Source of the DNA: Acidobacteriota bacterium
GTDB lineage: Bacteria > Acidobacteriota > Blastocatellia > UBA7656
Direction of reading: 5' to 3'
Assembly (NCBI GenBank): GCA_016201275.1
Contig: JACQDB010000043.1
Span: 339 to 64,338 of the forward strand
DNA: 64,000 nt
Position numbers and translations under genes: made by a program. A model generated the notes under the pieces. That model did no database searches and was not told the origin of the DNA. It saw only the letters and a program-made list of their open reading frames with translations. Shown here one piece after another: positions 4,578 to 57,499 of the stretch; the first letter of the stretch is position 1, and the number at the start of each line of letters is the position of its first letter.

Positions 4578-4598
4578 GACGCGAAGGAAGTAGGCCAA

Positions 4599-24595: not shown

Positions 24596-24603
24596 AAAAG
24601 ATT

Positions 24604-24673: not shown

Positions 24674-24676
24674 CAC

Positions 24677-33531: not shown

Positions 33532-34101
33532 TCATGGTCGGGCAATCAGGTTTGAGTAAATCACCCACTTGTCTTTGATCTTGCCGCCGACCAGCGTATA
33601 AACGTCAGTGCCGCCCGTTTCGTTCTGCGCTTTCCAGTTATGAAACAGGCTGCTGGGGGGGATTTTGTCCACCTCTACGCAGCGGTTGGGCGATTCATAA
33701 ACCAGGCGCGCAAAGGCAGAGACGTTGGAGCCGCCCAGAGCGCTCGACAGCATTTTATCTATGCTCTCGCGAGCTTTGGCGACAGCTTCATTCTGCTGCT
33801 TCTCTTTTTCGCTATAGACATTCAAATCTTTTTCAGTTTTGGCGAGTTGCGTTTTCAGAGCGGCGTTCTCGTTGGTCAGGCGAGTCTTTTCCGCCTCCGA
33901 TGAGGAATAAAGCGCGTAACTGGTGGACAGCAAAATAAGCGCGCCGACCAACGCCGCTGCGGTAAGCAACAACAGCAACAACAGCCAGCGCCGCTTGCCA
34001 GCTTCGTTCTGTTCAATCTGTTCGCGCAGCGTGTCAACGTCGTTCTGGGTATAAGTCCATGAACTTCGCGTGGATGATGAGGAGGATTTTTCTGTGGGCA
34101 T
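33532..34101 (-). CDS. Bitopic membrane protein with periplasmic coiled-coil and C-terminal NTF2-like-looking domain
   Basis: Ser-rich N-terminus, TM 'WLLLLLLLTAAALVGALILL', heptad region, conserved-looking C-terminus; no family assignable. Confidence 0.4.
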   Translation of the reverse strand: MPTEKSSSSSTRSSWTYTQNDVDTLREQIEQNEAGKRRWLLLLLLLTAAALVGALILLSTSYALYSSSEAEKTRLTNENAALKTQLAKTEKDLNVYSEKEKQQNEAVAKARESIDKMLSSALGGSNVSAFARLVYESPNRCVEVDKIPPSSLFHNWKAQNETGGTDVYTLVGGKIKDKWVIYSNLIARP

Positions 34102-34210
34102 AACGCTTCCTGCTTCCTGGGTGAAACGAATTTGTTGACAAGGGCAAGGGGGCCGAATCTTGGCGCGCTGAGAGTGTGGCTCAGGCGCTCGTCGTAAAAA
34201 TTTCTTCCGC

Positions 34211-34447
34211 TTATTTGAATTGGCCGAAGCGTTTCAGGAGCTTGTAAATATCTATTGCCGTGCTAAACAAACCTAAGATTAAACCGACCAGAAACCACAG
34301 GGGAGACGTAGCGAAATGATTGTCAGCCAGCCAACCCACATAGGCAGGCAAACCGATCATGAAGGGAATGGACAAGGCCAAACCTGCCGTCATCATAGCC
34401 TGACGCCAACTAATATCGCCCTTGGGTTTCTTATCCTCTTCCGTCAT
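34211..34447 (-). CDS. AtpZ/AtpI-like small 2-TM membrane protein
   Basis: ~78 aa, 'SWRQAMMTAGLALSIPFMIGLPAYVGWLADNHFATSPLWFLVGLILGLFSTAI' resembles the putative F0F1-ATPase 'gene 1' family; sits 24 nt downstream of nuoN. Confidence 0.4.
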   Translation of the reverse strand: MTEEDKKPKGDISWRQAMMTAGLALSIPFMIGLPAYVGWLADNHFATSPLWFLVGLILGLFSTAIDIYKLLKRFGQFK

Positions 34448-34498
34448 ATCCGTGCTGCTTCGATAATAGCGCAAGCAGCACGCCGATGCTACTCCGCA

Positions 34499-36157
34499 TC
34501 AGCGCGGCGGCGGCGCAGGTGATGGCATAGATTGGGGAGGCGATTTTGGCGCAGCGTGTTCCGCGCCGTCGTTTTGATAAACATAGGTCTTCGGGCCGGT
34601 GGCGGCCTTCTGCGTCAACGCAATCAATTGCTGTGGGAAAATGCCAATCAACAAGACAAACAAAGCCGCTGTCGCCAACGCAATGCGGAGCGGCCACGAT
34701 TGCATGACGGGCTGCATTTCGGTCTCCGCTTCGATGTACATGGCGCGAATAAAGCGCAAATAATAATACAAAGAAACCGCGCTCATCAGGACGGCGAGTA
34801 TCGCCAGTCGCACCAGCCACGGGTTGCCGGTTTCGATAAGTCCGGCGAACAAATAAAACTTGCCAATGAATCCGGCGGTCGGCGGTATGCCGCCAAGCGA
34901 CAGCAGAAAAATCGTCATCATCACCGTCAACCACGGCGCTTTTTTCATCAAGCCGTTCAAGTCTTCCATGCGGTCGCCAATGATGCCGCGTCTTCGCAGC
35001 GCGATGATGCAACCGAAGACGCCCAGATTCATCAAGGTGTAAATGAACAAGTAAATCACGAAGCCGGTGTAGCCGGTTTGATTGCCAGCGATGATACCGA
35101 GCAAAGTGTAACCGGCGTGCGAGATGGACGAATAAGCAAGCAGGCGCTTGGTATTGGTCTGGGTCAAGGCCGCCAGATTTCCCCACACGATGGTGATTGC
35201 CGAAACCACACCCAGCAACACCGCCCAGCCGGGAAGAGCGGGAAGGTGGCTCGTTGCATTGCCTTCAAGCGTGCCGCGCAAATCGGGCAGGCCGTACAAA
35301 AAGATGCGCCCGAACATAGCGAAGCTTGCGGCTTTGACCGCGACCGACATGAACGCGGTGATCGAAGTTGGCGCGCCTTCGTAAGCGTCCGGTGCCCACA
35401 TATGGAACGGCACCGCCGCCACTTTGAAGAACATCCCTGCGGCCATCAAAATCATGGACATCAACACCAAGTAACGCATATCCACGGCCTGACCGAGCGG
35501 TTGATAATTCGCGCCGATGACCACCGGCAAAGCTTTGGCGATGTCTGCCAGATTGGTCGAACCGGTCATGCCATAGACCATCGAAATGCCGTACAGCAAA
35601 ACGCCGGAAGAAAACGCGCCGAGGAGAAAATATTTCATCGCCGCTTCATTCGATCTCTGGTCGCGGCGCAGATAGCCTACGAGTATGTAAACCGAAATCG
35701 CCATCAATTCGAGGGCGATAAACAGCGTCAACAAATCCACCCCTGAAGCCATAAACATCATGCCGACGACGGCGAAAAGAATCAGCGCATAATACTCGCC
35801 GCGCTGTTCGCCTTCTTCGTCTAGATATTTTATGGAAAGCAAAATGGCGAGGAGCGCGCCAATCAGAAACATCATCTTGAAGACCACGGCATAAGGGTCT
35901 ATGACGATCATGCCAAAGAAACCGGCTTTGGCGCTGCTGCCCATCCCCTTGTACACGAAGATGAGCGAGACCAGCGAGACCAGCAAGCCCACTATGCTCA
36001 ACCAGGCGACGAGGAATTTTTGTTGGCGCGGCAACAGCACATCTATTACCAGCGCGGCACAGGCAAACAGCAGCAATAGAACTTCGGGCATAATGAGTTC
36101 TTTGGTCTGCTGCAAGATGACGGAAAGATCAGGCGATGTTTGTAAGAATGCGAACAT
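34499..36157 (-). CDS. nuoN: NADH-quinone oxidoreductase subunit N
   Basis: 14-TM antiporter-like subunit, 'FHMWAPDAYEGAPT', 'LLAYSSISHAGY'; Pro-rich C-terminal tail. Confidence 0.85.
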   Translation of the reverse strand: MFAFLQTSPDLSVILQQTKELIMPEVLLLLFACAALVIDVLLPRQQKFLVAWLSIVGLLVSLVSLIFVYKGMGSSAKAGFFGMIVIDPYAVVFKMMFLIGALLAILLSIKYLDEEGEQRGEYYALILFAVVGMMFMASGVDLLTLFIALELMAISVYILVGYLRRDQRSNEAAMKYFLLGAFSSGVLLYGISMVYGMTGSTNLADIAKALPVVIGANYQPLGQAVDMRYLVLMSMILMAAGMFFKVAAVPFHMWAPDAYEGAPTSITAFMSVAVKAASFAMFGRIFLYGLPDLRGTLEGNATSHLPALPGWAVLLGVVSAITIVWGNLAALTQTNTKRLLAYSSISHAGYTLLGIIAGNQTGYTGFVIYLFIYTLMNLGVFGCIIALRRRGIIGDRMEDLNGLMKKAPWLTVMMTIFLLSLGGIPPTAGFIGKFYLFAGLIETGNPWLVRLAILAVLMSAVSLYYYLRFIRAMYIEAETEMQPVMQSWPLRIALATAALFVLLIGIFPQQLIALTQKAATGPKTYVYQNDGAEHAAPKSPPQSMPSPAPPPR

Positions 36158-36176
36158 AGTTTCTCTTGTTGATGAA

Positions 36177-36325
36177 CTTGTACGGGCGACCCTGCGGTGG
36201 TCGCCCCGGCTTTTGAATTTTGTAGTTTCAAAAGCTCATTGAAAACATTGATGCGATAAGATCGCACGCTTTGAAATCATTTTGAATTTTAATGAGGGAC
36301 GACCACCGCAGGGTCGCCCGTACAG
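36177..36325. repeat. ~29-bp inverted repeat (tgtacgggcgaccctgcggtggtcgcc / ggcgaccaccgcagggtcgcccgtaca) spanning the nuoN-nuoM spacer
   Basis: Arms at ~36177-36207 and ~36296-36325, ~90-nt loop. Confidence 0.55.
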
Positions 36326-36329
36326 TAAA

Positions 36330-38150
36330 TTACTTTGCCTGGCTCTCGACTTCCACAGGCGTAGGCTCACTGATTTTGCTTCCGGTCTTAGTGCTTTGCG
36401 GCATCAATTCGTTGGCAGACTTTTCTTCCGCCATCTTCGGTTCTTCGGGCAGCTTGAAATAATTGGGATCAATCTGCACGACCACCGCTTCGGTCTGCGG
36501 GTTGATGTACGACAGCAACGGTTTGGGATAGATGCCGATCCAGAAAATCAACACGATGAGCGGCGCAAACTGCCACGCTTCTCGCGCATTCAAATCGGGC
36601 AGCGTTTTATTTTTGTCGTTGGTGACGGCACCGAAAAAGACTCTTTGATAAAGCCACAACATATACGCAGCGCCCAAAATAATGCCTACGGTGGCCAGCG
36701 CGCCCCACGTCGCTTTGGCTTCAAACGCGCCTCGCAATACTAGAAACTCGCCGATGAAATTGTTCATCAAAGGCAAGCCCAGCGACGATAGCGTGACGAT
36801 TAAAAAGATTGTCGAGTAGATCGGCATGACCGAGGCCAGGCCGCCAAACTCGGCGATCTCGTAGGTGTGGCGGCGTTCGTAAATCAGACCGGCCAGCATA
36901 AACAGCGCCCCCGTAGAGATGCCATGATTAATCATCTGCATCACCGCGCCGTTGATGCCGTTCGGATTCAAGGCGAACAAACCCAGCATCACAAATCCCA
37001 GATGTGACACCGACGAATAGGCCACCAGTTTCTTAATATCTTTTTGCGCCATCGCCACCAGCGCGCCGTAAATGATGCCGATGATGGCCAACGTAATCAT
37101 CCAGAAACGCACTCGCGGATGCGTCGCCGCATCGGGAAATATCGGCAGCGAAAATCGCATGAAGCCATACGTTCCCATCTTCAGCAAGATGCCCGCGAGG
37201 ATGACCGAGCCTGCCGTGGGCGCGTCGTAGTGGGCGTCCGGCAACCACGTATGAAAGGGGAACATCGGCACTTTGATGGCGAACGACAAGGCAAAGCCTA
37301 CGAATAACCAGATGACTACATTGATACCGAAGACCGTTTTGATGTGCGGCCCGATAGCCGTCAAGGCGGCGATGTTGAACGACGAACGCACATAACTTGA
37401 TGGCAGCGATTTGTTGTCCACGTCTTTGCCATCCACGCGCCGCATAGCGTCTTCGACCAGCTTTCGCATGGCGCTGTTTTCCTGTCCGGTTTCATGATTG
37501 GTGGCGTATTGACGGGCGGTTTCCAGCACCAAACCTTTTTGCGATTTGACGACATCAGGAAAGATGAAGAAGAGTTTTAACACCGCCAAGAGCATCACCA
37601 CGGAACCGACCAAGGTGTAGAGGAAAAATTTAATCGCCGAATAGAGGCGATTTTTGCCGCCCCATATGCCGATCAAAAAGTACATAGGCACGAGCATCAC
37701 TTCCCAAAAGATGAAGAACAGGAAAAGGTCTGCCGAGGCAAACGCGCCAATCATGCCGGTCTGCAACAACAGCAGCATGATGTAGTATTCTTTTTCGCGG
37801 CCTTTGTCGCGGATGTACGACCAAGAGCAGACCGCCGCGATGACGCCAAGCAAAGTGGTCAGCATGATTAAAATCACCGACAAGCCATCAACCGCCACTT
37901 GATAACGCGTTCCGATGATCGGTATCCACTCGAAGTCTTCAATGAATTGCAAACCACCGAGCGCCCGGTCATAGCCCTTGATGCTGCTGCCGAATCCGGT
38001 AATGAGCGGAATCGAAACCACAAAGCACAGTCCCATCCAGAGATTGGCGAACCAGCGAATCGCATCGTTTTTGCTCTTGTTAAATAAGAGTAAGAGGATT
38101 GCCCCAAGCGCCGGCAACCACGTCACCCATGAAAGAATGCCTATCTTCAT
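36330..38150 (-). CDS. nuoM: NADH-quinone oxidoreductase subunit M, with ~70-aa hydrophilic insertion
   Basis: 'HTWLPDAHYDAPT', 'KKLVAYSSVSHLGFV'; 606 aa vs ~500 typical; insertion 'KSQKGLVLETARQYATNHETGQENSAMRKLVEDAMRRVDGKDVDNK'. Confidence 0.85.
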   Translation of the reverse strand: MKIGILSWVTWLPALGAILLLLFNKSKNDAIRWFANLWMGLCFVVSIPLITGFGSSIKGYDRALGGLQFIEDFEWIPIIGTRYQVAVDGLSVILIMLTTLLGVIAAVCSWSYIRDKGREKEYYIMLLLLQTGMIGAFASADLFLFFIFWEVMLVPMYFLIGIWGGKNRLYSAIKFFLYTLVGSVVMLLAVLKLFFIFPDVVKSQKGLVLETARQYATNHETGQENSAMRKLVEDAMRRVDGKDVDNKSLPSSYVRSSFNIAALTAIGPHIKTVFGINVVIWLFVGFALSFAIKVPMFPFHTWLPDAHYDAPTAGSVILAGILLKMGTYGFMRFSLPIFPDAATHPRVRFWMITLAIIGIIYGALVAMAQKDIKKLVAYSSVSHLGFVMLGLFALNPNGINGAVMQMINHGISTGALFMLAGLIYERRHTYEIAEFGGLASVMPIYSTIFLIVTLSSLGLPLMNNFIGEFLVLRGAFEAKATWGALATVGIILGAAYMLWLYQRVFFGAVTNDKNKTLPDLNAREAWQFAPLIVLIFWIGIYPKPLLSYINPQTEAVVVQIDPNYFKLPEEPKMAEEKSANELMPQSTKTGSKISEPTPVEVESQAK

Positions 38151-38280
38151 CGAAGTCTCCTAAGAAGCTAGTTTGTATTCAGAATAATTGCCACGCTTCA
38201 GCCTGATAGAATTTGAAAGACCGATATAGCAAGGGTTCGCACCATGACAGACATCTGACAATCTGCCTCGGAGGGGCAAA

Positions 38281-38446
38281 GGAGATTAGCCAGTGGTGCA
38301 GCCACTGGAAAAGAATCGCCCCTTAGAATTATTTAGCCCGGAAAGGGCGATAGAAAACCAGCTTTCATCTTTCATCCCGCGCCCCTTCAGGGCGCGATTG
38401 ATTACGAAGGCTTTCGTCCAGTGGCTGCACCACTGGCTAATCTCCA
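38281..38446. repeat. Perfect 28-bp inverted repeat ggagattagccagtggtgcagccactgg / ccagtggctgcaccactggctaatctcc in nuoM-nuoL spacer
   Basis: Arms 38281-38308 and 38419-38446; ~110-nt loop containing a second palindrome cgcgccccttcagggcgcg. Confidence 0.6.
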
Positions 38447-38577
38447 TCGCGCTTTCAGCGCGAACACAAAGCTCTATCTCTTTTCAAAGACCTTGGCTGA
38501 AAATTTCAAGTACCTAAAACGGCTCGAAAGATTAAAACGAAAATCAAACAGCAAAAACGGCGATAAGCAAAGCCACA

Positions 38578-40995
38578 TCACTTCGCCCCGAACAAGCCTT
38601 TGAGGGTCGCAGAGATCGCCGGATAAATGTAAAACGCCACAATGATAAACAAGCCCAGCGTAAAGACCAGCACATAGTTTTGCCAGAAGCCGGTTTGAAA
38701 AGTACGCAGCACCAGCGACCCGCCTTTGCTGATCCACCCCGTCGCGTTGACCAATAAATCAATCACGTATTTGTCCCACAGATTGCTCAGACGCGCCCAC
38801 AAACGGGTCAACGCGCCCGCACCGTTTACGCCGCCATCCACCACCGTCGCGTCCACCGCCCACAAAGCGTTGTTGACGACTTTACCTGCTGCTACGCCTT
38901 TTACGTCGAGCAAGTAATCCCAATACCACTTGTTGAAACTGAGTTTGTACAGCGGCTGCAATTTCGCGCCCCACGCTTTCGCCAGTCCGGGTTTATCTAA
39001 ATAAAAAACTTTTGCCAGATACATACCAAGCAAAGCGACGAGTACGGAAGCCATCATCAAAATAAGTTCGAGCATCTGGAACGGTTTGTGTTCGCCTTCT
39101 TCGTGCGTTGCTTGCGAGGTTGCTTGCGCTTCGCTGGCAGTAGATTCAGCAGCGTTGTGCGCTTCACTGGCAGTGGTTTGCGGCGTGCCATGCGCTTCGA
39201 CAGTGGCGGTCGTGGCGTGTTGCGGTGTGGCGTGAACTTTTTCAATCACCGGATCAAGCCAATGCTCGAAGGCACTGGCGTGCGGAATACCAAGCAGCCC
39301 TATGAAAAGCGAGAAAGCCGCCAGCACGATTAACGGAATCGTCATGCTCTTGGGCGATTCGTGCGGCTCAAAATGATGATGCGCGGCGGTGTGCGTAACA
39401 AAGGGATCGCTGGCGTCTTTCGCGCCGACGTGTTCACCTGGTTGATGATGCGGACGGTCGCCTGCCGAAGCGGTCACGGCGTCGTGCGGTTTCAAATCCT
39501 TATCGTAAGCGGCAGCGTGCGCTTCGTCGGCCTCGCCACCTGCGTGAACTTTGCGAAAGCGCTCTTCGCCCCAGAACGTCAAAGCCATCAAGCGCGTCAT
39601 GTAAAACGCCGTGATGCCAGCGGTGAACAAGCCGACAATCCACAAAATTTTCGCGCCGCCGAAGCGCGTTGTATCAAAGGTATTCCAGAGAATTTCATCT
39701 TTCGACCAGAAGCCTGCCCATAGGGGAATGCCGCAGATGGCTAGCCAGCCCATCAGCATGGTCTTGTAAGTCGTCGGCAGATATTTTTTCAAGCCGCCCA
39801 TGCGCGGCATCTCCTGTTCGTGGTGCATACCATGTATGACCGAACCGGAGCCGAGGAAAAGCAGAGCTTTGAAAAAAGCGTGGGTGAAGACGTGAAAGAT
39901 AGCGGCTACGAAAGCGCCTACGCCTGCGCCTAAAAACATAAAGCCGAGTTGCGAGACCGTCGAATAAGCGAGAACTTTTTTGATGTCGGTTTGCGTGATG
40001 CCTATGGTTGCGGCGATGAATGCCGTCAAACAACCGACCACCGCGACCACCATCATCATGGTCGTCGAGCGTTGAAAAAAGAAATTGGTGCGCGTCACCA
40101 TAAAGACGCCTGCGGTCACCATAGTCGCCGCGTGTATCAAGGCAGACACCGGCGTGGGGCCTGCCATAGCGTCCGGCAACCAGATGAATAAAGGAATCTG
40201 CGCGCTCTTGCCGGTCGCCCCGATGAACAAGCCCAGCGCAATCCAACTCATCAAACCGAACGCGCCCAGCGCTTCCGGCGGATAGGCTTTCGCCAGTGCC
40301 GCCAGATCATGAAACTGCAAAGTGCCGAACATAGCAAAGACGCCAAAGATGGCCAGGGCAAAGCCTAAATCGCCTATGCGGTTGACGACGAAAGCTTTTT
40401 TGGCGGCGTCGCCCGCTTCCTGTCGGTTGATGTAATAGCCGATCAGCAGGTAGGAACATAATCCCACGCCTTCCCAGCCGACGAACATAATCATGAAGTT
40501 CGATCCCATCACCAACAGCAGCATCATGAACATAAACAGATTCAGGTACGAGAAGAAGCGATAGAAGCCGGGGTCGCCGTGCATATAGCCGGTCGCGAAG
40601 ATGTGAATCAAAAAGCCTACGAAGGTGACGACGAACATCATGACCAGCGAGAGTTGGTCTATTTGATAGCTCCACTCGATATTGAAATTCGCCAGCTTGC
40701 CTTTGTCTGCGCCTTGCGTGAGATGAGCGCGTCCGCCAGGCATCCAGGTAAAGCTGAAGCCGCCGGGTTCTTTGCTTGTGATATAAGGCTTGTCTGCGTT
40801 GTTGGGATTGAAACTGGTTTTGTATTCCACGAATGCGCCTATGGTAATCAACAGCGACAGCCCGATGACACCGCAGGCAATCCACGACACGACCTTTTCG
40901 CTGAGGTGCAGTTTTTTGCCCAAGAGAAAATTGATAAGGAAACCCAACAGTGGAAAGACAGGAATCAGCCAGACGAGTTTTAACATAATAGTCAT
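38578..40995 (-). CDS. nuoL: NADH-quinone oxidoreductase subunit L, with ~150-aa His/Ala/Thr-rich insertion
   Basis: 'WLPDAMAGPTPVSALIHAATMVTAG'; 805 aa vs ~610-650 typical; insertion region 'EADEAHAAAYDKDLKPHD...HHHFEPHESPK...HATPQHATTATVEAHGTPQ'. Confidence 0.85.
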   Translation of the reverse strand: MTIMLKLVWLIPVFPLLGFLINFLLGKKLHLSEKVVSWIACGVIGLSLLITIGAFVEYKTSFNPNNADKPYITSKEPGGFSFTWMPGGRAHLTQGADKGKLANFNIEWSYQIDQLSLVMMFVVTFVGFLIHIFATGYMHGDPGFYRFFSYLNLFMFMMLLLVMGSNFMIMFVGWEGVGLCSYLLIGYYINRQEAGDAAKKAFVVNRIGDLGFALAIFGVFAMFGTLQFHDLAALAKAYPPEALGAFGLMSWIALGLFIGATGKSAQIPLFIWLPDAMAGPTPVSALIHAATMVTAGVFMVTRTNFFFQRSTTMMMVVAVVGCLTAFIAATIGITQTDIKKVLAYSTVSQLGFMFLGAGVGAFVAAIFHVFTHAFFKALLFLGSGSVIHGMHHEQEMPRMGGLKKYLPTTYKTMLMGWLAICGIPLWAGFWSKDEILWNTFDTTRFGGAKILWIVGLFTAGITAFYMTRLMALTFWGEERFRKVHAGGEADEAHAAAYDKDLKPHDAVTASAGDRPHHQPGEHVGAKDASDPFVTHTAAHHHFEPHESPKSMTIPLIVLAAFSLFIGLLGIPHASAFEHWLDPVIEKVHATPQHATTATVEAHGTPQTTASEAHNAAESTASEAQATSQATHEEGEHKPFQMLELILMMASVLVALLGMYLAKVFYLDKPGLAKAWGAKLQPLYKLSFNKWYWDYLLDVKGVAAGKVVNNALWAVDATVVDGGVNGAGALTRLWARLSNLWDKYVIDLLVNATGWISKGGSLVLRTFQTGFWQNYVLVFTLGLFIIVAFYIYPAISATLKGLFGAK

Positions 40996-41095
40996 TAGTC
41001 CTTAGTCCTTAGTCCCTAGTCCTTAGTCTTCAGTTAAAGGTTTCGGCTCGTGAAAGCATTTAACTAAGGACTAGGGACTAAGGACTAAGGACTAA
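40996..41095. repeat. Intercistronic tandem-heptamer hairpin (AGTCCTT x5 / AAGGACT x4) between nuoK stop and nuoL start
   Basis: tagtccttagtccttagtccctagtccttagtcttcag ... ctaaggactagggactaaggactaaggactaa. The left arm abuts the nuoL start codon (40993-40995) and the right arm ends 1 nt from the nuoK stop. Confidence 0.7.
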
Positions 41096-41096
41096 A

Positions 41097-41579
41097 CTAA
41101 AATTTCAGTAAATCAATTTCGTCAATCGCTATGGTTTCGCGGTTGCGGAACAGCGCGATGACGATGCCCAAGCCGACGGCGGCTTCTGCAGCGGCGACAA
41201 CAATGATGAAAATGGTAAAGACCGGCCCGGCCAACGGGTTGACGGTCATACCGGCGCTTTTGAATGCTGTATTGAACGCTTCCTGATTGATTTGAAAGTA
41301 GCGCGAGAACGCGATCAGGTTCAGATTAACCGCGTTCAAAATTAATTCGATGGACATGAAAATGATGATGATGTTGCGGCGCGATAACACTCCGGCGACG
41401 CCTACGACGAAGAGCAGAAAACTCAACATCATGAAATTGACCAGCGTCGGCTCGAAGCGTTCCAGATTCGGCCAGACATACTTGTACGAAACGAAGCCAA
41501 CCGCACCTAAGAAAAGTACGGTGAAGATAAGGTTCGGGAGGTTGTCGCGTGAAAAGAATTTTTTAAGTCCAGAGGGCAT
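41097..41579 (-). CDS. nuoK: NADH-quinone oxidoreductase subunit K with N-terminal extra TM extension
   Basis: Canonical NuoK core from '[16 protein letters not shown]...[15 protein letters not shown]'; upstream in-frame ATG at 41579 has a GAGGAG SD at 9 nt, supporting the 160-aa form with an additional helix '[16 protein letters not shown]'. Confidence 0.8.
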
Positions 41580-41617
41580 TTATCCTTACTCCTCAATGGG
41601 TGAAAACCGAACTGCTG

Positions 41618-41688
41618 AGTTTGGCGTGCCGCCTGCAAGCGGTTGCTGCGGCTTTCAGGAAAACCGCCTGTAGGCGGCACGCCAAACT
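41618..41688. repeat. Inverted repeat gtttggcgtgccgcc / ggcggcacgccaaac in nuoK-nuoJ spacer
   Basis: 15-bp perfect core, arms extend imperfectly to ~25 bp. Confidence 0.55.
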
Positions 41689-41749
41689 TTTCTGTTTAAT
41701 CATGGCCAATGAAACGGCGTTGCGATTGCCCGGCGCGGCCTTAGCAGCC

Positions 41750-42349
41750 TTATTCGCTGGGTTCGTAAAGCTTCTCTTGTTTGGTGCCGCGAGCCAACAA
41801 CACCGCGCCCACCATTGCTACCAGCAACAACACCGAAGCGATTTCAAACGGCAAGGCGGCTTCTTTGTAAAGCGATTGGCCTACCTCTTGAGTGTCGGTG
41901 GAAATCTGCGAGCCAGCGCCTGACTTGGTGGATTCCGCTGGCGCTTCTTTGCTTTGCGCGGCGGCCTCGGAAGGCTGCGGGCGAAATGCCGGTTGCGCCG
42001 AATTCATGGCAAAGAAAAACGACACCGCCAATAGCAAAGTAAGCATCACCGCTGGCCACATCTGCCCGGTGTAGAGTTTTACTTTCGCCTCTTCTTCGGC
42101 GCGGGTCTGCACCAACATGATGACAAACAGAAACAGCACCATCACGCCGCCTACATAAACCAGTATCTGCACACCAGCGACAAATTCGGCGCGCAGCAGG
42201 ATGAACAACAAGGCGATGTTGACCAGCGTTGAAATCAGAAAGAGAGCCGAATGCACGGCCAATCGCGCCGACACCACCAACACGCCCATGATGAGCGTTG
42301 AAAATGCCAGCACATAAAACAGCACTGCTTCCCAACCGTGTAATTGCAT
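41750..42349 (-). CDS. nuoJ: NADH-quinone oxidoreductase subunit J
   Basis: 5-TM ND6-like; 'MQLHGWEAVLFYVLA...'; hydrophilic A/S/E-rich segment before last helix. Confidence 0.8.
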   Translation of the reverse strand: MQLHGWEAVLFYVLAFSTLIMGVLVVSARLAVHSALFLISTLVNIALLFILLRAEFVAGVQILVYVGGVMVLFLFVIMLVQTRAEEEAKVKLYTGQMWPAVMLTLLLAVSFFFAMNSAQPAFRPQPSEAAAQSKEAPAESTKSGAGSQISTDTQEVGQSLYKEAALPFEIASVLLLVAMVGAVLLARGTKQEKLYEPSE

Positions 42350-42350
42350 C

Positions 42351-42452
42351 GTAGTCCTTAATCCTTAGTCCTTAGTCCTTAGTTCCCTTTCTTTGATATT
42401 CAGGTCGGTGGCAGATTTCTCTCACCGACTAATGACCAGGGACTAAGGACTA
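42351..42452. repeat. Intercistronic tandem-heptamer hairpin between nuoI stop and nuoJ start
   Basis: gtagtccttaatccttagtccttagtccttagttccc ... gactaatgaccagggactaaggactat; the right arm overlaps the nuoI TAG; nested 7-bp stem gtcggtg/caccgac inside the loop. Confidence 0.7.
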
Positions 42453-42995
42453 TTTCGTGTACTTGACGTAGCTGATGCCTTTTTCGAGCATCTCGCGGTC
42501 CCAACGAAAGCCTGAGCGATGATAGACGGCAAGCTCGAAACCTTGAGTCAATTCTAGGCAATCCGTTGGGCAGGCTTCCGAACAGAGATTGCAAAACATA
42601 CAACGCGAGGTGTCGAAGGTAAACGTCGTCAGCACTTTTTTCTTGTTCACCTTTGCGCCATCGCGCACTTCGCGGCGAATCGAACCGACATCTATGCAGT
42701 CCACCGGACAGGCCAGCGCGCACAGGTCGCAAGCGATGCACAAGGTGCCGCCGGTTTCCGGGTCAAGGTTCAAACGCGGCGCGCCTCGGTAACGCTCCGA
42801 CACTCGCGCCGCCTCAAGCGGGTACTGCTCGGTGTAGAGCGCTTGATGCGGATTGCCGCCATCGCGTTTTTCATACAGAGCGCGAATATTATATTTGAAG
42901 GTTACGGCCAGACCCTTGAAGAGGTCTAAAAGTAACAGCCGTTTGATAATGCCGGAGAAACTGCGCTTTCTTCCGGCTACGTTTATTGCTGGCAT
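42450..42995 (-). CDS. nuoI: NADH-quinone oxidoreductase subunit I (2x[4Fe-4S] ferredoxin)
   Basis: 'CIACDLCALACPVDC' and 'CMFCNLCSEACPTDC'. Confidence 0.9.
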   Translation of the reverse strand: MPAINVAGRKRSFSGIIKRLLLLDLFKGLAVTFKYNIRALYEKRDGGNPHQALYTEQYPLEAARVSERYRGAPRLNLDPETGGTLCIACDLCALACPVDCIDVGSIRREVRDGAKVNKKKVLTTFTFDTSRCMFCNLCSEACPTDCLELTQGFELAVYHRSGFRWDREMLEKGISYVKYTK

Positions 42996-43077
42996 AATTC
43001 ACCTACTTACAAAAAACCAAACTTGATAGCGCAAAAAACCATTGGTTGATGCGAATCGTTAATCACAGAATCCGTTT

Positions 43078-43245
43078 TTGCGGCTCTGCCGCTTTGAGAT
43101 GCGGAAAGGCTCGGACTTTCCGGCAAGGCGACAGGAACGCTTCAACGGCTACGCCGCCAATTGGGGCGCAGCCCCGAAACCTTTCAACGAATCCTCCGGC
43201 GGGGCAAAGCCACCGCCGCACATCAAAGCGGCAAAGCCGCCTGAC
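43078..43245. repeat. Diverged third copy of the palindromic MITE-like element (see 55700 and 57131)
   Basis: gccgctttgagatgcggaaaggc ... ccgcacatcaaagcggcaaagccgc mirrors the core gccgctttgaggtgcggagaggc ... ccgcacctcaaagcggcatagccgc of the other copies. Lies in the 345-bp nuoI-nuoH spacer. Confidence 0.5.
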
Positions 43246-43340
43246 GCTTTGACACAGAACCCCTAACAGGAAGGCGTTGGTTTATCAATCGGAAATCGCC
43301 GCTTAACCCTGATTCAAGAATGCGGCGCTCAATCTTAAAC

Positions 43341-44705
43341 TTATTCCGCTGCTTCGGCGTTTTCCATCTTTTTCAAACGCTCGCGGCGCAACTTGAATTG
43401 TAACTGGCGCTGCTCGTCGAGATTGAAATCATTGGAGCGCCGATTGATTGCCGCAAGCAGCGCCCAGACCATTGGAACCGTAATGAGAAAACCTGTAGCT
43501 ACGAAATAGATAACGCCTGCCCACTGGGTTGGCACTAATCGCCCACTCACATCTTTCATGAAATTAAATCTCAAGAAAAATTTTAGAAAGTCCGGGAGTG
43601 AGGCTTTTGTACTAGGCAATGCAAGCACATACCAGATAGCGGTCATCACGATGTTTGCGAGTCCCGCCGGAATCATCCACTTCCAGCCAATCTCCATCAA
43701 CTGGTCGTAGCGATAACGCGGCCACGTCCAGCGTATCCACATGAAAGCGTAAATCAACACCATCACCTTCGTGGCGAAAATAACGATGCTCAAAAAGACG
43801 AACAGATTGGGCGAAGACTTTTCGATAAGGCTCAGGCCGGGAAACGACCAGCCGCCCAGATAAAGTGTCACGGCAATCGAAGAGGTGACAATCATCGCGG
43901 TGTATTCCGCCATAAAAAACAGCGCCCAGCGAAAGCCCGAATACTCGGTGTGATAACCGGCGACGAGTTCCGATTCGGCTTCCGGCAAATCAAAAGGTGC
44001 GCGATTGGTTTCGCCTAACGCGCAGATGACGTAAACCAGAAAGCCCAGCGGTTGAAAGAAGAAATACCATACGCCATCGGCGCGTTGCGCTTCGACAATG
44101 CCATTCATCGAAAGCGTGCGCGCAAACATCAAGGCTCCGATAATCGAAAGCCCCATGCCGATTTCATAACTCAACATCTGCGCCGACGAACGCAATGCGC
44201 CAAGCAGTGAATACTTCGAGTTGGAAGACCAACCGGCCAACACCAACCCCAACACCGCGACCGACGAAACCGCCAGAATAAACAGCAGGCCAATGTTGAC
44301 GTTGGCAATCGTTCCCCAGCCTGCGCCCCACGGCACCACCGCAAGAACGACCAGAGCGGCGACCACGGCGATAATCGGCGCGAGTTGAAAAATCGCTTTG
44401 TCGGCTTTAATCGGGATGATGTCTTCTTTGAGCAGCAGTTTCAAACCATCGGCAGCCGGTTGCAAAAGTCCCCAAGGGCCTACGCGCATAGGGCCAAGCC
44501 GCGCCTGCATGAAGGCCGACACCTTGCGCTCCAGATAAACCAGATAGGCAACCAGGGTCAAGATGATGAACAGCACCACGATGATTTGAATGAGCGGCCA
44601 GACGATGTACTCCGACCAAAAGACATTCGGCTGTTTCTCTTTGGTGAGATATTCTCGCACCCATTGCGGCGCAACCAGGAGTAATGTCGAAAGTATAGCT
44701 GTCAT
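43341..44705 (-). CDS. nuoH: NADH-quinone oxidoreductase subunit H, with ~80-aa C-terminal extension
   Basis: 'EAESELVAGYHTEYSG' signature; 454 aa vs ~330-350 typical; extra C-terminal TM + basic coiled tail. Confidence 0.9.
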   Translation of the reverse strand: MTAILSTLLLVAPQWVREYLTKEKQPNVFWSEYIVWPLIQIIVVLFIILTLVAYLVYLERKVSAFMQARLGPMRVGPWGLLQPAADGLKLLLKEDIIPIKADKAIFQLAPIIAVVAALVVLAVVPWGAGWGTIANVNIGLLFILAVSSVAVLGLVLAGWSSNSKYSLLGALRSSAQMLSYEIGMGLSIIGALMFARTLSMNGIVEAQRADGVWYFFFQPLGFLVYVICALGETNRAPFDLPEAESELVAGYHTEYSGFRWALFFMAEYTAMIVTSSIAVTLYLGGWSFPGLSLIEKSSPNLFVFLSIVIFATKVMVLIYAFMWIRWTWPRYRYDQLMEIGWKWMIPAGLANIVMTAIWYVLALPSTKASLPDFLKFFLRFNFMKDVSGRLVPTQWAGVIYFVATGFLITVPMVWALLAAINRRSNDFNLDEQRQLQFKLRRERLKKMENAEAAE

Positions 44706-44717
44706 AATAATCCAAGT

Positions 44718-44832
44718 GCTGAGGACTGAGGGCTAAGGACTGAGTAAGAAATTAGACGCAAGCTATCAGGTTTGCGATTTGCCAATCATTGCAGACAAGT
44801 TTTTCACTCAGTCCTCAGTCCTCAGTCCTTTA
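44718..44832. repeat. Intercistronic hairpin, GACTGAG/CTCAGTC heptamer variant, between nuoD stop and nuoH start
   Basis: gctgaggactgagggctaaggactgagtaag ... cactcagtcctcagtcctcagtccttta; right arm includes the nuoD TAA. Confidence 0.65.
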
Positions 44833-45963
44833 TCTATCAACTTCGCCTAAAACGATGTCAATCGTTCCGATAATTGCCACCACATCGGCAACCAGATGGC
44901 CTATGGACATTTTCTTCAACGCCTGTAGATTAATGTATGAAGGCGGACGGATACGCATACGATAGGGTTTGCCGGTTCCGTCGCTCACCAGGTAAACGCC
45001 GATTTCGCCTTTGGGCGCTTCTATCGAATGATAGATTTCGCCGACCGGCGGCTTGATAATCTTCGGCACTTTCGCCATCACCGGCCCTTCCGGCAAACCA
45101 TCGAGCGCCTGTTCGATGATACTGAGCGATTGCCGCATCTCTGCCATGCGACAAAGATAGCGGTCATAAGTGTCGCCGTTTTCGCCCACCGGAATTTCAA
45201 AATCGAAATCGGCATAAGCCGCATACGGTTGCGCTTTGCGTATGTCGTATTTGACGCCCGAACCGCGCAGTACGGGGCCGGTCAAACTCAAATTGATAGC
45301 GTCTTCGGCAGACAACACGCCTATGCCAACGGTGCGGCTCAACCAGATACGGTTGCTGTTTAACAGCGTTTCATATTCATCAATGCGAGTGGGCATCATC
45401 TTCAAAAATTCTTTGACGCGATCAACGAATTCCGGGTAGGCGTCCCATTGCAGACCGCCGATGCGGAAAGCGTGTGCGGTGAGCCGTGCGCCGATGAAGT
45501 CTTCAAAGATTTTTAAGATCTCTTCGCGTTCGCGGAAACAGTAGAGCAAGACCGTCACCGCGCCTATATCAATGGCGTGCGTACCAAGCCACAACAGATG
45601 CGAAGCGATGCGCTGCAATTCAGTCAGGGCAACGCGCAGATATTGCGCGCGACGCGGCACTTCGACCTGCAATAATTTTTCTACGCCCTCGACGTAACAC
45701 AAATCGTTGGAGACGGCGGCGACATAATCGAGCCGATCCCAATAAGGCGTGATCATTTGATAGGTGTCGTGTTCGGCAATCTTTTCCACACCGCGATGCA
45801 GATAGCCGATGTCACAATCGAGGTCGGTTACGGTTTCGCCGTCGAGTTTTAAGATGACGCGCAACACGCCGTGCGTCGAAGGATGCTGCGGCCCCATGTT
45901 CAGCACCATCTCTTCGGCGTCGAGCAGCGTTTCGTGCGGTTTAATCGCTTCCTGGCTTTGCAT
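44830..45963 (-). CDS. nuoD: NADH-quinone oxidoreductase subunit D (49-kDa)
   Basis: '[14 protein letters not shown]', 'GYLHRGVEK', C-terminal 'GEVDR'. Confidence 0.9.
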
Positions 45964-45969
45964 AAGTAT

Positions 45970-46065
45970 GAGTCCTTAGTCCTCAGTCCTTAGTCCTCAG
46001 CTTGTCGTCACACGCTTTCGTTCGAGCGAATAACTAATGACCAGGGACTAAGGACTAGGGACTAA
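45970..46065. repeat. Intercistronic tandem-heptamer hairpin between nuoC stop and nuoD start
   Basis: gagtccttagtcctcagtccttagtcctcag ... taactaatgaccagggactaaggactagggactaa; the right arm is near-identical to that of the 42351 hairpin (ctaatgaccagggactaaggacta). Confidence 0.7.
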
Positions 46066-46068
46066 AAT

Positions 46069-47106
46069 CTATCTGCGTTGGGCGTATTTCACATCAATCA
46101 AACTGGTATCATAATCCACTTCGCGATAGTCAATGTGTTTATCCGTCCACTCGTTGTCGCGGTATTCAATCGGATACTCTTTGCGAAGCGGATAGCCCGG
46201 CCAATCTTCGGGCAACAGTATGCGCCGCAAATCCGGGTGGCCGTCAAATTTTACGCCGAACATATCAAAGACTTCGCGCTCCATCCAATTCGCGCCTGCC
46301 CAAATTGAGGTGACGCTGGGCGCGGCTTCGCCTTCAGCAATCGCCGTCTTGACGCGCAGGCGTTGATTTTTGGATACCGAATATAAATTGGCCACGATGT
46401 CAAATTCCGCGCCAGTTTTGTCTGGCCAGTGCAGTGCCGTCAAATCGGCGCACATGGTAAACGCGCCGTCTTCGTCATCGTGCAGGAAGCGGCACAGTTT
46501 CAAATACGCATCTTTGTTGACGCGAATGATGCGTTGTCCGAAGGTCTTGACGGTTTCGGTGATGGCGTCGGGGAATTTGGCTTTGAGTTTATCAATGAAG
46601 GGATCGTCTTTAATCTCTTCGGTGACGGTTGGCCCTTTTTTAGCAGGCGGCGCGGGTTTGGCAGCGCCCGCCGTAGCGGCTGATGCAGGCGCTTTGGGCG
46701 GCGCGGCGGCTTTCGGCGGCGCAGGCTTTGCGGCAGCTTCCGGCTTGGCTGCGGCATCAGCGGTGGGCGCTTTTGCTTCAGCGCTCGGCGTTGCTTCTGC
46801 TTTTGCTTCAGCGCTCGGTGCGGCGACTTTTGCAGGGACTTCGGGTGTTGCCGGTGCTGTCGGTTTTTCGGTTGCGGCTACAGTCGAAGTTTCGGCCAGA
46901 CTATCGGCAGTCGTATTGCCTGGGCTGGCGCTGGCTTCGGGTTGAGTTTCGCTTGGTGTTTCAGTGGGTAAAGTAGGTGCGGCGACGTTGGCCGGTTGAG
47001 CGGTTGAAGCAACCTCGGCCTCAACCGTTTTCGCGTCCGTCGGTTCAGCATTCTCCGGGACTTCCTGCGTATCTTTGCTTTCGTCTGACATAATGGCAAC
47101 CTGCAT
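46069..47106 (-). CDS. nuoC: NADH-quinone oxidoreductase subunit C (30-kDa) with ~170-aa N-terminal Ala/Pro/Thr/Glu-rich low-complexity extension
   Basis: C-terminal half 'GANWMEREVFDMFGVKFDGHPDLRRILLPEDWPGYPLRKEYP' is canonical; N-terminal half is compositionally biased (PTAPATPEVPAKVAAPSAEAKAEATPSAEAKAP...). Confidence 0.85.
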   Translation of the reverse strand: MQVAIMSDESKDTQEVPENAEPTDAKTVEAEVASTAQPANVAAPTLPTETPSETQPEASASPGNTTADSLAETSTVAATEKPTAPATPEVPAKVAAPSAEAKAEATPSAEAKAPTADAAAKPEAAAKPAPPKAAAPPKAPASAATAGAAKPAPPAKKGPTVTEEIKDDPFIDKLKAKFPDAITETVKTFGQRIIRVNKDAYLKLCRFLHDDEDGAFTMCADLTALHWPDKTGAEFDIVANLYSVSKNQRLRVKTAIAEGEAAPSVTSIWAGANWMEREVFDMFGVKFDGHPDLRRILLPEDWPGYPLRKEYPIEYRDNEWTDKHIDYREVDYDTSLIDVKYAQRR

Positions 47107-47578
47107 ACTCGCGCACCTTGAAACCTCTAGGGCGCGGAAAAATAGTTACGGTATTGATGACTACTCGCTATTTGAAAAGCTGCTGGAAAATAACTCTGCT
47201 TCTTGACGCAGATGCTTTTAGCATAGGCTTGAAAGCCTTGTCAATCTCAGCCCCAAAACTAGGGCGATTGCAAAGTTGGGTAAGAACGAAAAATTCAGCA
47301 GACCAGTGCGGGCGTACCTCCGTGTGCGCCCCTTGATGAATCCGCGAATCATTGCAGTAGTCGCCCATACCAGTTGGCACTTGATTTCAGCCACCATCAT
47401 CAGGCAGACAGCCGAGCCATGCCGGTCTCGCTATAAAAAGGCAGGCACACAAACTGGCAGTGTAAAGGAGCAAAGGATGAGACGGGTTCGCCGAATCACA
47501 GCCATAGGCGGGTGCGGCGAATCCGCTCAATTGGTGGTCTATACAGATAGACGCTACGCCTCGCTTGATCTTCAAGCC

Positions 47579-48964
47579 TCAACAGCGGCATGACTTTTCG
47601 GCAACCTGCATGGCCTGTTTGATCGAATCGCCGAGCGAGATGCCGCGCAGATAATTGCCGCTTAAAAAAAGCCCTGTGCGGTTTTGCAAAGCCGCTTCCA
47701 CTGCCGTGATGCGCGCCGCATGACCCAAAATATATTGCGGCAGCGCACGCTGGTGGCGCGTGATCGGCAAGCGCCGTGGCTCGCCCGTGAGTCCTAAAAC
47801 TTTGTGTAAATCCTGATGCACGGTGGCGATCAATTCGTCATCGCTCAAGGTGATGGCTTCGCGGTCGGTTGCGCCGCCTATGTAATTGGTCAAACACACC
47901 CAGCCTGCGGGCGCACGTTCAGGAAACAGCGACGAATTCCACACCGAGCCGAGGGTTCGCAAACCGGCGCTACGCGGCGCTAGAAAACCGAAGCCGTCGA
48001 GCGGTCTTGCTAACTGTTCCTGACGATAAGCGAGCGGCACTGAAGCCAAACTCGCATACGGTATATCGGCAATCAAGGAAGCAATCTCCGGCGCGCACTC
48101 CTTGAGCAACAGCGCCGCCGCATCAGCCGGTGTCGCCACAATCAAGGTCGCCGCCGCCACCGTGTGCCGTGTGCCCTGATGCTCGAACACCACTTCAAAA
48201 CGCGCCGACGAATTCGCTTCGTTGTTGTCGCGTATGCTTGTCACCTGAGCTTCGCGCAAAAAATTCTCGCCTAAACTTTTCGCCAGCCTGCCAGGTAAGG
48301 CTTCGAGTCCGCGCCGAAACGAACATAAACGATAGGGACGCAAAGAACGCTTGGGCGTCGCTTGGCCGTTGCGCCCTGCGCGCATCGCTCGCAAGGCCCC
48401 GCGCAGTATGCTGCCGCCTGCAATTTCAAACTCCGGCAACTTCGCAAAGCTTGCCTGCACGCTCAATTGTTCGACATCACCGGCATAGACTCCCGAAACA
48501 AATGGGCTGACCAGGCGCTCCAATACCTGCCGCCCAAGTCTGCGTTCGATGAACGATGCGACGCTCTCTTCGCCTGCTTCACGGCGCGCTTTGATGAACG
48601 GTTCGCCGAGCAGACGAAACTTTGCGCCGATTGAAAGCAGTTTGGTTTTGATCAACGCCGGTGGACTCATCGGCACGGCGTGCAGCGCGCCGTCCACGTA
48701 AACATAAGCGGGCGCTGTCGCGTCGCCCGTCACCAATTCATCCTGCAAGCCGAGTTCTTCCAGCAAGTCTAAAAATTCATGCGTGCCGCGCAGACTGTTG
48801 GGGCCGCGTTCAATCAGAAAGCCATCGGCATCGAGGCTTTTGATGACGCCGCCTGCGTGCTTGCTGTTTTCGAGGAGCAGAATAGTTCGCCCCGCTTGTT
48901 GCAGATGACTGGCCGTGACCAATCCCGCTATGCCTGCGCCGATGATGATGGAATGAAGCGCCAT
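47579..48964 (-). CDS. hemY: FAD-dependent protoporphyrinogen/coproporphyrinogen oxidase (HemY/PPOX family)
   Basis: 'IIIGAGIAGLVTASHL...GGVIKS' N-terminal FAD motif; ~460 aa; adjacent to hemN. Confidence 0.7.
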   Translation of the reverse strand: MALHSIIIGAGIAGLVTASHLQQAGRTILLLENSKHAGGVIKSLDADGFLIERGPNSLRGTHEFLDLLEELGLQDELVTGDATAPAYVYVDGALHAVPMSPPALIKTKLLSIGAKFRLLGEPFIKARREAGEESVASFIERRLGRQVLERLVSPFVSGVYAGDVEQLSVQASFAKLPEFEIAGGSILRGALRAMRAGRNGQATPKRSLRPYRLCSFRRGLEALPGRLAKSLGENFLREAQVTSIRDNNEANSSARFEVVFEHQGTRHTVAAATLIVATPADAAALLLKECAPEIASLIADIPYASLASVPLAYRQEQLARPLDGFGFLAPRSAGLRTLGSVWNSSLFPERAPAGWVCLTNYIGGATDREAITLSDDELIATVHQDLHKVLGLTGEPRRLPITRHQRALPQYILGHAARITAVEAALQNRTGLFLSGNYLRGISLGDSIKQAMQVAEKSCRC

Positions 48965-57328: not shown

Positions 57329-57499
57329 ATATAGCGGCTTGCAGATGTGTGCGATTTGTTGAGAGGCGGTCTGTGACCGCCGTGCTGTGGTCACAGACTG
57401 CCTCTCAACTAGGTGTCGTGGGTCGCAGGCAAATGAAATTCGCTATAAGAAACACGAGAAGCGAGGTTGGAGTAGCGCCTTGAAACGATGGCGCACGCT

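Follow-up and report, generated by a model that had tools for sequence, protein, structure and literature searches.

What are the long inverted repeats that fill the spaces between the nuo genes, which encode the subunits of respiratory complex I, in a 64-kb stretch of DNA from a soil acidobacterium (contig JACQDB010000043.1; hereafter the window), and how do they come to be there? At four junctions of the operon, nuoC-nuoD, nuoD-nuoH, nuoI-nuoJ and nuoK-nuoL, the spacer consists almost wholly of a single inverted repeat, the arms of which are tandem heptanucleotides. The observation is real and well supported; the function of the elements is uncertain and probably non-essential. NuoD places the window in the class Blastocatellia of the Acidobacteriota. 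Relatives were sampled as 21-kb pieces around nuo (loci with the prefix L), and the best loci encode NuoD proteins that are 95% (L032), 92% (L001 and L058) and 91% (L002) identical to that of the window. A search for near-identical strains with polymorphic unit numbers found no record of this NuoD, and searches via NuoI and NuoJ yielded only two Logan contigs, both 100% identical to the window. One of these, L201 (Logan SRR12113411), equals window positions 41066-45889 and is a short-read contig that ends inside the nuoK-nuoL hairpin.

Heptamer hairpins at the junctions of the nuo operon

The nuo operon of the window is of the 11-subunit type and is encoded on the minus strand. The region covers its distal part in the order nuoC-D-H-I-J-K-L-M-N, with no nuoE, nuoF or nuoG between nuoD and nuoH; the genes adjoining the four elements are nuoC (46069-47106), nuoD (44830-45963), nuoH (43341-44705), nuoI (42450-42995), nuoJ (41750-42349), nuoK (41097-41579) and nuoL (38578-40995). 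Direct reading of the sequence recovered all four elements, likewise on the minus strand, at the coordinates given in the initial annotation. The nuoK-nuoL hairpin (40989-41095) has arms of 33 nt (40995-41027 and 41063-41095) that are 100% complementary, and on the mRNA a 5' arm of the form (UUAGUCC)n is followed by a loop of about 35 nt and a 3' arm of the form (AAGGACU)n. The variant unit CCCTAGT in one arm has its mirror ACTAGGG in the other. The hairpins between nuoI and nuoJ (42352-42452; arms 42352-42377 and 42427-42452, 26 nt, 85% complementary) and between nuoC and nuoD (45971-46065; arms 45971-45994 and 46033-46056, 24 nt, 83% complementary) are built from the same unit, TTAGTCC/GGACTAA. 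At nuoD-nuoH (44718-44830; arms 44722-44751 and 44800-44829, 30 nt, 87% complementary) the unit is CTGAGGA, read as AGGACUG/CAGUCCU on the mRNA, and the order of the arms is reversed compared with the other three hairpins.

Tandem Repeats Finder called a period of 7 with 3.3-5.9 copies in every arm (5.7 and 4.7 copies at nuoK-nuoL), and the 13-mer AGTCCTTAGTCCT, with up to two mismatches, occurs 27 times in the window as compared to 0.45 expected occurrences. The sense-strand RNAs fold with energies of -64.8 (nuoK-nuoL), -41.1 (nuoI-nuoJ), -50.2 (nuoD-nuoH) and -50.1 kcal/mol (nuoC-nuoD), corresponding to z-scores of -13.0, -5.9, -5.4 and -6.7, and none of 200 shuffled sequences is as stable. 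The hairpins and the phased heptamers of their arms, both proposed from a first inspection, are thus supported by inverted arms, period-7 calls and strong folds alike. A relation of the elements by descent had also been suggested and, for copies within this genome, is supported by homologous arms and by an irregular 24-nt arm, ctaatgaccagggactaaggacta, that is identical at nuoI-nuoJ and nuoC-nuoD.

Strong stems inside an operon bring transcription terminators or attenuators to mind, and hairpin clusters without T-runs have been proposed as terminators (PMC8355165). We give this explanation hardly any credence, because no T-run follows any of the stems, a terminator scan of positions 34000-48000 was silent at the elements, and termination after nuoC, nuoD, nuoI or nuoK would abolish the remaining complex I subunits. 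The scan for terminators and promoters returned nothing at the elements, and no Rfam family reached its gathering score in a search with E <= 1, the only hits being sub-threshold matches to microRNA precursors that are typical of long hairpins. The absence of a T-run after the stems excludes Rho-independent terminators as a class. The elements are no CRISPR arrays, the units being 7 nt long, contiguous and arranged in inverted arrays as opposed to 24-48-nt direct repeats with unique spacers. Nor do they belong to the REP sequences (repetitive palindromes outside genes), the bacterial interspersed mosaic elements (BIMEs) composed of them or the hairpin-forming REP doublets (REPINs), for their copies have a period and a unit in common but no fixed palindrome, their loops are unrelated and, on reading the arms, no head of the GTAG/CGTC type is found. 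Lack of a T-run, lack of an Rfam family and the heptamer architecture thereby uphold the initial view that REP/BIME elements, CRISPR arrays and intrinsic terminators do not account for them.

The hairpins run from stop codon to start codon. The first unit at nuoI-nuoJ, TAGTCCT, begins with the nuoI stop codon TAG (42450-42452), and the nuoK stop TAG (41097-41099) lies 1 nt ahead of the stem. The first nuoL ATG (40993-40995) directly follows the last heptamer unit. The other boundaries are the nuoJ ATG at 42347-42349, the nuoD stop TAA at 44830-44832 with the nuoH ATG at 44703-44705, and the nuoC stop TAG at 46069-46071 with the nuoD ATG at 45961-45963. That the elements are locked to these junctions, as originally described, extends to relatives: in 105 co-directional spacers bearing heptamers, the main stem begins a median of 1 nt past the stop codon (no more than 3 nt in 73 of them), and its median distance to the start codon is 8 nt. 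The motif AAGGA had been noticed upstream of the start codon in three of the four nuo junctions of the window, and it does stand 3 nt (nuoK-nuoL), 5 nt (nuoI-nuoJ) and 9 nt (nuoC-nuoD) before the ATG; none is present near the nuoH ATG. As a general feature the motif does not stand, being peculiar to one type of unit; the units of most relatives lack it at the same junctions.

Two of the flanking gene products are longer than expected from their families: in NuoC (345 aa) the NuoC domain is confined to residues 170-314, and in NuoK (160 aa) the family match begins near residue 46. Both thus have either N-terminal extensions or start codons called too far upstream.

Distribution and turnover in acidobacterial loci

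Arrays with a period of 7 are a lineage-wide trait. The 67 acidobacterial nuo loci (1.19 Mb) contain 246 of them as compared to a single one in 13 loci from other phyla (0.22 Mb), an approximately 45-fold difference. Period 7 alone stands out: arrays with periods 8-12 number 0-11 in the acidobacterial loci, and for periods 4-6 the acidobacterial loci do not differ from the others in their background rate. With heuristic gene calls, on which these values depend, array density is 2.5 per kb in co-directional, 1.3 in convergent and 0.74 in divergent spacers and 0.027 in called genes, co-directional spacers thus exceeding genes about 90-fold. In nuo junctions the density reaches 4.6 arrays per kb, about five times the value of 0.88 per kb in the remaining co-directional spacers of these loci. 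Of the arrays in Blastocatellia loci, 76% have an inverted partner no more than 250 nt away, as compared to none of 246 in a shuffled control.

Among 22 Blastocatellia loci, arrays are commonest at junctions lacking a Shine-Dalgarno site for the downstream gene and rarest where this site is strong, as judged from the mean energy of hybridization with the anti-Shine-Dalgarno sequence. They are present at nuoK-nuoL in 14 of 18 loci (-1.5 kcal/mol), at nuoD-nuoH in 8 of 21 (-1.9), at nuoM-nuoN in 4 of 11 (-1.5), at nuoC-nuoD in 6 of 20 (-3.4), at nuoJ-nuoK in 8 of 17 (-6.3), at nuoI-nuoJ in 7 of 19 (-5.5), at nuoH-nuoI in 1 of 22 (-6.3) and at nuoL-nuoM in none of 15 (-8.0). Most loci of the Terriglobia type, with NuoD about 70% identical, also have arrays at nuoK-nuoL (about 25 by our own count), and many bear them at nuoJ-nuoK and nuoL-nuoM as well.

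Two further regularities concern the units themselves. Units containing a stop codon make up 38 of 69 5' arms, as compared to 23.8 +/- 3.3 in composition-matched shuffles, and the first unit often begins with the stop codon of the upstream gene (TAGTCCT, TAGGTGT, TAGATGT, TAGAAGA). Since 7 is not a multiple of 3, three stop-containing units close all three reading frames, and the presence of a stop in many units would account for the near-absence of the arrays from coding DNA. Furthermore, the 5' arm is rich in G and T and the 3' arm in A and C in 65 of 78 hairpins from loci L001-L079 and the window; the nominal binomial p of about 2e-9 is overstated, since the loci are related. By our own base count all six hairpins of the window are G/T-first. 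This polarity is independent of gene direction, because a palindrome reads alike on both strands.

While position is kept, sequence is replaced. Units such as GAACCCT, GTGATGA, GATTGCG, GCTTCTA and TTAGCAC, among others, take each other's place at orthologous junctions. Even between the window and L032 the unit is common to both only at nuoK-nuoL and differs at nuoC-nuoD and nuoI-nuoJ; in L032 a variant unit, TTTGTCC, of the nuoK-nuoL hairpin is again mirrored in the other arm, as GGACAAA. At the nuoK-nuoL junction of L001 and L002 the flanks are identical and the difference lies in an internal block of 48 nt made up of heptamer units and loop, and at nuoD-nuoH the arms of the window and L058 are orthologous with unrelated loops. 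Spacers in L002 are compact (13-50 nt), and that between nuoK and nuoL measures 1-4 nt in L079, L023 and L028; because such loci exist, the elements can be dispensed with, and compact spacers probably represent the ancestral state. The initial annotation had regarded repeat-free spacers in relatives together with a random distribution as speaking against a regulatory role. Relatives without the repeats were indeed found, one close relative being devoid of them at most of its junctions; random placement was not, the elements being locked to junctions. Of the roles listed there, that of a palindromic element expanding by slippage is best supported, by the L001/L002 block in identical flanks and by different units at orthologous junctions. 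Taken together, the changes fit slippage inside arrays, templating of one arm on the other or selection for their pairing, and occasional copies from one locus to another. In the nuoD-nuoH spacer of L058 (11134-11291) an outer hairpin of the CTGAGGA type surrounds an inner one of the TGAACGA type, which suggests that new arms were added outside older ones.

The replacement of units bears on another explanation, according to which the arrays are binding sites for a protein reading 7 nt, in DNA or RNA, that would exert global control over the flanking genes. Candidates are a DNA binder resembling integration host factor (IHF) or HU or of the response-regulator type, and a single-strand binder of the cold-shock or S1 type. 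The strict 7-nt period and the G/T-first polarity would suit such a protein, paired fivefold heptanucleotide sites of Geobacter metallireducens have been interpreted in this way (PMC2700814), and TAACTGA repeats next to start codons have been proposed as sites for S1, Csp or CsrA (PMC4679880). The units are, however, many and unrelated within one genome, with at least five in the window and dozens across the loci, and they differ at orthologous junctions. A sequence-specific binder is unlikely for these two reasons, and we consider the explanation as a whole very improbable.

The unit of the window is not confined to acidobacterial nuo loci. In the wider metagenome, exact (AGTCCTT)n arrays occur on at least 120 contigs with a G+C content from 33% to 76%; they are mostly unpaired, about 19% having an inverted partner, and no contig of the same species was among the matches. 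The unit is widespread, and the metagenome scan is uninformative on function. Some metagenome contigs, L118 (4696-7385), L122 and L103, may carry very long (AGTCCTT)n tracts; for L118 a period-extension script gives a putative length of up to about 2.7 kb.

Within the window, period-7 arrays number 13 in our own scan, as compared to 0-5 for periods 5, 6 and 8-11, and at least five types of unit are represented. The elements had been taken for a family of nuo junctions. They are enriched in nuo, but two further hairpins and three unpaired arrays lie elsewhere. The unit family of the nuo hairpins, here as (TAGTCMT)n/(CTAATGA)n, also forms a fifth hairpin, on the plus strand at 2398-2474 (-31.5 kcal/mol, z = -5.6), between a gene for a type II/IV secretion ATPase (stop codon 2392-2394) and one for a zinc-ribbon protein, the ATG of which (2479) is preceded by AAGGAG at a distance of 7 nt. 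A hairpin with period-7 arms of a different unit, ATTGGTT/AACCAAT, which reads (UGGUUAY)n/(UAACCAA)n on the mRNA, bridges a gene for a pyrroloquinoline quinone (PQQ) beta-propeller protein (stop codon 24677-24679) and a gene for an iron-containing alcohol dehydrogenase (ATG 24593-24595) on the minus strand at 24601-24681. The unpaired arrays are (TTTGCCA)n at 26177-26221 (minus strand), which lies at the junction of two PQQ beta-propeller genes and abuts a likely start codon, (AAGGCAA)4 at 23234-23265 (minus strand), downstream of the alcohol dehydrogenase stop codon and either ahead of the following PQQ beta-propeller gene or at its start, and a short (CAAACGG)n at 4592-4619 (plus strand) directly after the stop codon of a pfkB-family kinase gene. 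All nine heptamer elements apparently lie between co-directional genes according to our own reading of the flanking open reading frames, the gene start after 23234 being uncertain. The three PQQ beta-propeller genes and the iron alcohol dehydrogenase gene form a cluster on the minus strand (22182-28524), and each of its three junctions carries a heptamer element with a unit of its own (AAGGCAA, ATTGGTT, TTTGCCA).

The remaining nuo spacers of the window (nuoH-nuoI, nuoJ-nuoK, nuoL-nuoM and nuoM-nuoN) hold long palindromes that are not heptamer-based, so that all eight contain a long hairpin of some kind. Those at nuoJ-nuoK (41618-41688), nuoL-nuoM (38276-38450) and nuoM-nuoN (36179-36324) have arms of 27-34 nt that are 93-97% complementary, and the first has an ortholog in L032 with an altered inner stem. 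Part of the 345-nt nuoH-nuoI spacer is occupied by a copy (43080-43240) of a second palindromic family of about 200 bp, present in at least three copies (also at 55715-55915 and 57148-57291) with arms of the form TGCGGC..TGCCGCTTTGAG.TGCGGA.AGGC; this family looks like a MITE (a miniature transposable element with inverted repeats) or a REPIN. Two short REP-like hairpins, at 4715-4767 and 57358-57409, have GTTGAG.GCGGTCTGTGA in common. A sub-threshold match to the Rfam family Acido-Lenti-1 (38418-38462, plus strand; 29.7 bits as compared to a gathering score of 37, E = 0.002) overlaps one arm of the nuoL-nuoM palindrome and is probably noise.

Mobility would be another source of the heptamer hairpins. 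They would then be MITE- or REPIN-like elements with heptamer terminal inverted repeats that insert beside stop codons by means of a transposase encoded elsewhere. One unit family occurs at five junctions of this genome while the same junctions of close relatives carry other units, an irregular 24-nt arm is identical at two loci, and the same operon harbors other multi-copy palindromes such as the family just described. We nevertheless rate this origin as decidedly unlikely, since the copies have unrelated loops and differ in arm length by whole units, growth or shrinkage between L001 and L002 took place inside constant flanks, no target-site duplication or conserved internal sequence is recognizable, and only about 19% of the (AGTCCTT)n arrays of the wider metagenome have an inverted partner. 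Assignment to MITEs fails on the same grounds: internal sequences are unrelated, the difference between L001 and L002 lies in internal units while the flanks are constant, and no target-site duplication can be recognized.

Probable in-place evolution and predicted consequences for the mRNA

We prefer, with a probability of roughly 0.55, a reading of the elements as dispensable microsatellites, heptanucleotide and palindromic, which evolve in place and the stems of which link stop to start and bury the start region. They do not amount to a dedicated regulator of the sequence-specific kind. In each of them, a non-conserved loop would be flanked by a 7-nt unit repeated in two inverted arrays; units would be added and removed in place, presumably through slipped-strand mispairing, and arms would be copied between junctions of one genome. 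The arms likely stay complementary via arm-to-arm templating (quasipalindrome correction) and/or selection for pairing; it is the mirroring of variant units in both arms that points to such maintenance. Given their position inside the operon, the elements should be transcribed as part of the nuo mRNA and fold into predicted stems of about 24-41 bp. At its base, such a stem would bring the stop codon of one gene together with the start codon of the next, so that the start region, here including the AAGGA supplied by the arm, would be buried. Downstream translation would probably need the stem base to be opened, either by the ribosome terminating upstream (translational coupling) or by an RNase III cut. 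The helicase of the ribosome reaches about 11-13 nt, and RNase III prefers stems of about 20 bp or more; we infer the opening of the occluded start by the terminating ribosome and/or RNase III from these two properties. Stems may be best tolerated at junctions that rely on coupling and lack a Shine-Dalgarno site.

Several observations do not sit easily with this reading. A sense-strand bias in stability is lacking, the sense strand being the more stable one in 20 and the antisense strand in 24 of 44 spacers with two arrays, and there is no excess of G-U pairs (364 sense as compared to 338 antisense, p = 0.3). In a simulation of a ribosome that keeps the first 9-12 nt past the stop codon unpaired, the base of the main stem is lost, and in many cases the start region finds local partners or pairs again in a shifted register, so that it is not cleanly exposed. 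Start codons outside nuo were chosen by a heuristic, which biases the distances between stem and start downwards, and phylogenetic relatedness among the loci makes the counts non-independent. The junctions nuoJ-nuoK and nuoI-nuoJ are exceptions to the relation with Shine-Dalgarno strength, as they have good sites and yet often bear arrays. Finally, the recurrence at nuoK-nuoL in two classes, the fivefold enrichment in nuo and the 65:13 polarity are not predicted by neutral slippage. These three regularities may point to selection or another factor.

Selection is put forward by an explanation in which the stems are selected RNA processing or stability elements, serving as RNase III sites or exonuclease barriers, and the heptamers merely generate the stem. 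Segments of the nuo polycistron would be cut or protected, the A/C-rich 3' arm would be freed as a leader of the downstream gene, and the stoichiometry of the subunits would be set in this way. The predicted stems are long enough for RNase III, the nuoK-nuoL hairpin persists across Blastocatellia and Terriglobia despite complete turnover of its sequence, and the fivefold nuo enrichment, the presence of some long hairpin in all eight nuo spacers of the window and the polarity are in line with selection. A precedent is provided by Haemophilus influenzae, where an (ATCTTTC)n hairpin in the 5' untranslated region of hmw is cleaved by RNase III, which affects expression by raising it (PMC12721329). 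On the other hand, L002 and several acidobacterial lineages whose junctions are compact have minimal elements or none, stability and G-U pairs show no sense-strand bias, similar arrays lie in spacers called convergent or divergent, and copy number and loop content are highly variable. We therefore regard a selected processing role as possible but doubtful.

A bolder proposal goes further and takes the elements for self-renewing 'zipper' hairpins that replace Shine-Dalgarno initiation at chosen operon junctions of the Acidobacteriota, above all nuoK-nuoL. By juxtaposing stop and start, the stem would pass a terminating ribosome or RNase III on to the next cistron. The 7-nt period and the polarity would reflect a dedicated factor, for example a single-strand binder with a 7-nt footprint, or alternatively repeat dynamics that depend on RNA and RNase III as in hmw of H. 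influenzae, and the structure would be kept across the phylum while its sequence is continuously replaced. This proposal appears unlikely to us.

Relation to known heptanucleotide repeats

As probable microsatellites evolving in place, the acidobacterial elements would join a known class of repeats. Heptanucleotides are the most abundant class of long simple repeats in many bacteria and are attributed to polymerase slippage, according to the accounts of Mrazek (2007) given in PMC4679880 and PMC4692102. The cyanobacterial short tandemly repeated repetitive (STRR) sequences and heptanucleotide long simple repeats, as related from Mazel et al. (1990) and Mrazek et al. (2007) in PMC4692102 and PMC4679880, are alike in that they consist of tandem 7-nt units of several types per genome. 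Repeats of the STRR type are biased to non-coding DNA including operon spacers, for example that between pecE and pecF in Nostoc (PMC4692102). The acidobacterial elements likewise have at least three tandem units, a non-coding bias, several unit types and length and sequence variation at conserved positions. They differ from STRR sequences in that their arrays are mostly inverted pairs forming one long hairpin (76% in Blastocatellia loci) and that these hairpins span stop to start, are G/T-first and are concentrated in the nuo operon.

The GGGAATC repeats of Xanthomonas and the GGGGA(C/T)T repeats of Nostoc likewise stay in place from one relative to the next as their length and sequence change (Rehm et al., 2015, PMC4692102). 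As in the Acidobacteriota, these arrays are located near gene ends and under-represented between divergent genes, and inverted stem-loop pairs occasionally occur among them (PMC4692102). Their units are, however, G-rich and quadruplex-forming with a preferred copy number of four (PMC4692102), whereas the acidobacterial units are not G-tract units and the hairpin is the rule. Comparable in arrangement, by description, is 'class 3' of Geobacter metallireducens, five tandem MTYCTGA units on opposite strands, for instance in the proB-proA spacer (Aklujkar et al., 2009, PMC2700814). Here, too, two inverted arrays of about five heptamers lie at variable distance in spacers within operons (PMC2700814), and a Geobacter-like unit, TTCTGAC, is present in the acidobacterial loci L007 and L010. 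The Geobacter elements comprise eight pairs with a single consensus and were read as IHF/HU-type sites (PMC2700814), in contrast to the many units, lineage-wide occurrence and rapid turnover in the Acidobacteriota. The units of the window (TTAGTCC, CTGAGGA, ATTGGTT and others) do not conform to MTYCTGA.

The hmw hairpin resembles the acidobacterial ones as a heptamer repeat in a long hairpin just upstream of a gene, with the qualification that the acidobacterial stems are presumed to be transcribed. It contains one repeat arm, the other being G-rich, lies in a 5' untranslated region and mediates phase variation of an adhesin (PMC12721329), whereas both acidobacterial arms are repeats, the elements stand between cistrons and there is no hint of phase variation. 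Direct repeats of TAACTGA are known from marine Beggiatoaceae, cyanobacteria and Bacteroidetes (MacGregor, 2015, PMC4679880). They, too, are stop-containing heptamer arrays a few nucleotides upstream of start codons, often without a canonical ribosome-binding site (PMC4679880). A Beggiatoaceae genome has 169 sets of direct repeats and a single inverted set, all of one unit sequence (PMC4679880), as opposed to the inverted acidobacterial arrays with their many units. With REP, BIME and REPIN sequences and with intercistronic stabilizer hairpins the acidobacterial elements have in common that they are non-genic palindromes inside operons, and those known elements are able to stabilize upstream mRNA. 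REPs, unlike phased tandem repeats, are fixed multi-copy sequences of 20-40 nt tied to REP-associated tyrosine transposases (RAYTs), and their copies share sequence and not merely a period.

Our literature searches returned no description of such elements for Acidobacteria, nor did we find the stop-to-start geometry of the hairpins, the hot spot in nuo or the G/T-first polarity reported before. Heptanucleotide microsatellites are known from cyanobacteria, Xanthomonas and Geobacter, and the acidobacterial elements are a fast-changing and apparently undescribed variant of them. In practical terms, heptamer hairpins break short-read assemblies, as in L201, and mislead the calling of start codons in metagenome-assembled acidobacterial genomes. 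At the same time they offer a tractable system for the long-standing question why 7-nt repeats are the favored long microsatellite in bacteria, since units are seen to be gained, lost and replaced at orthologous junctions in dozens of genomes, together with an unexplained strand-independent polarity. If the effect on the RNA is real, the operon of a respiratory complex would tolerate, or even use, intercistronic insertions of 100 nt by folding them away, and the elements would provide a natural example of structure conserved without sequence.

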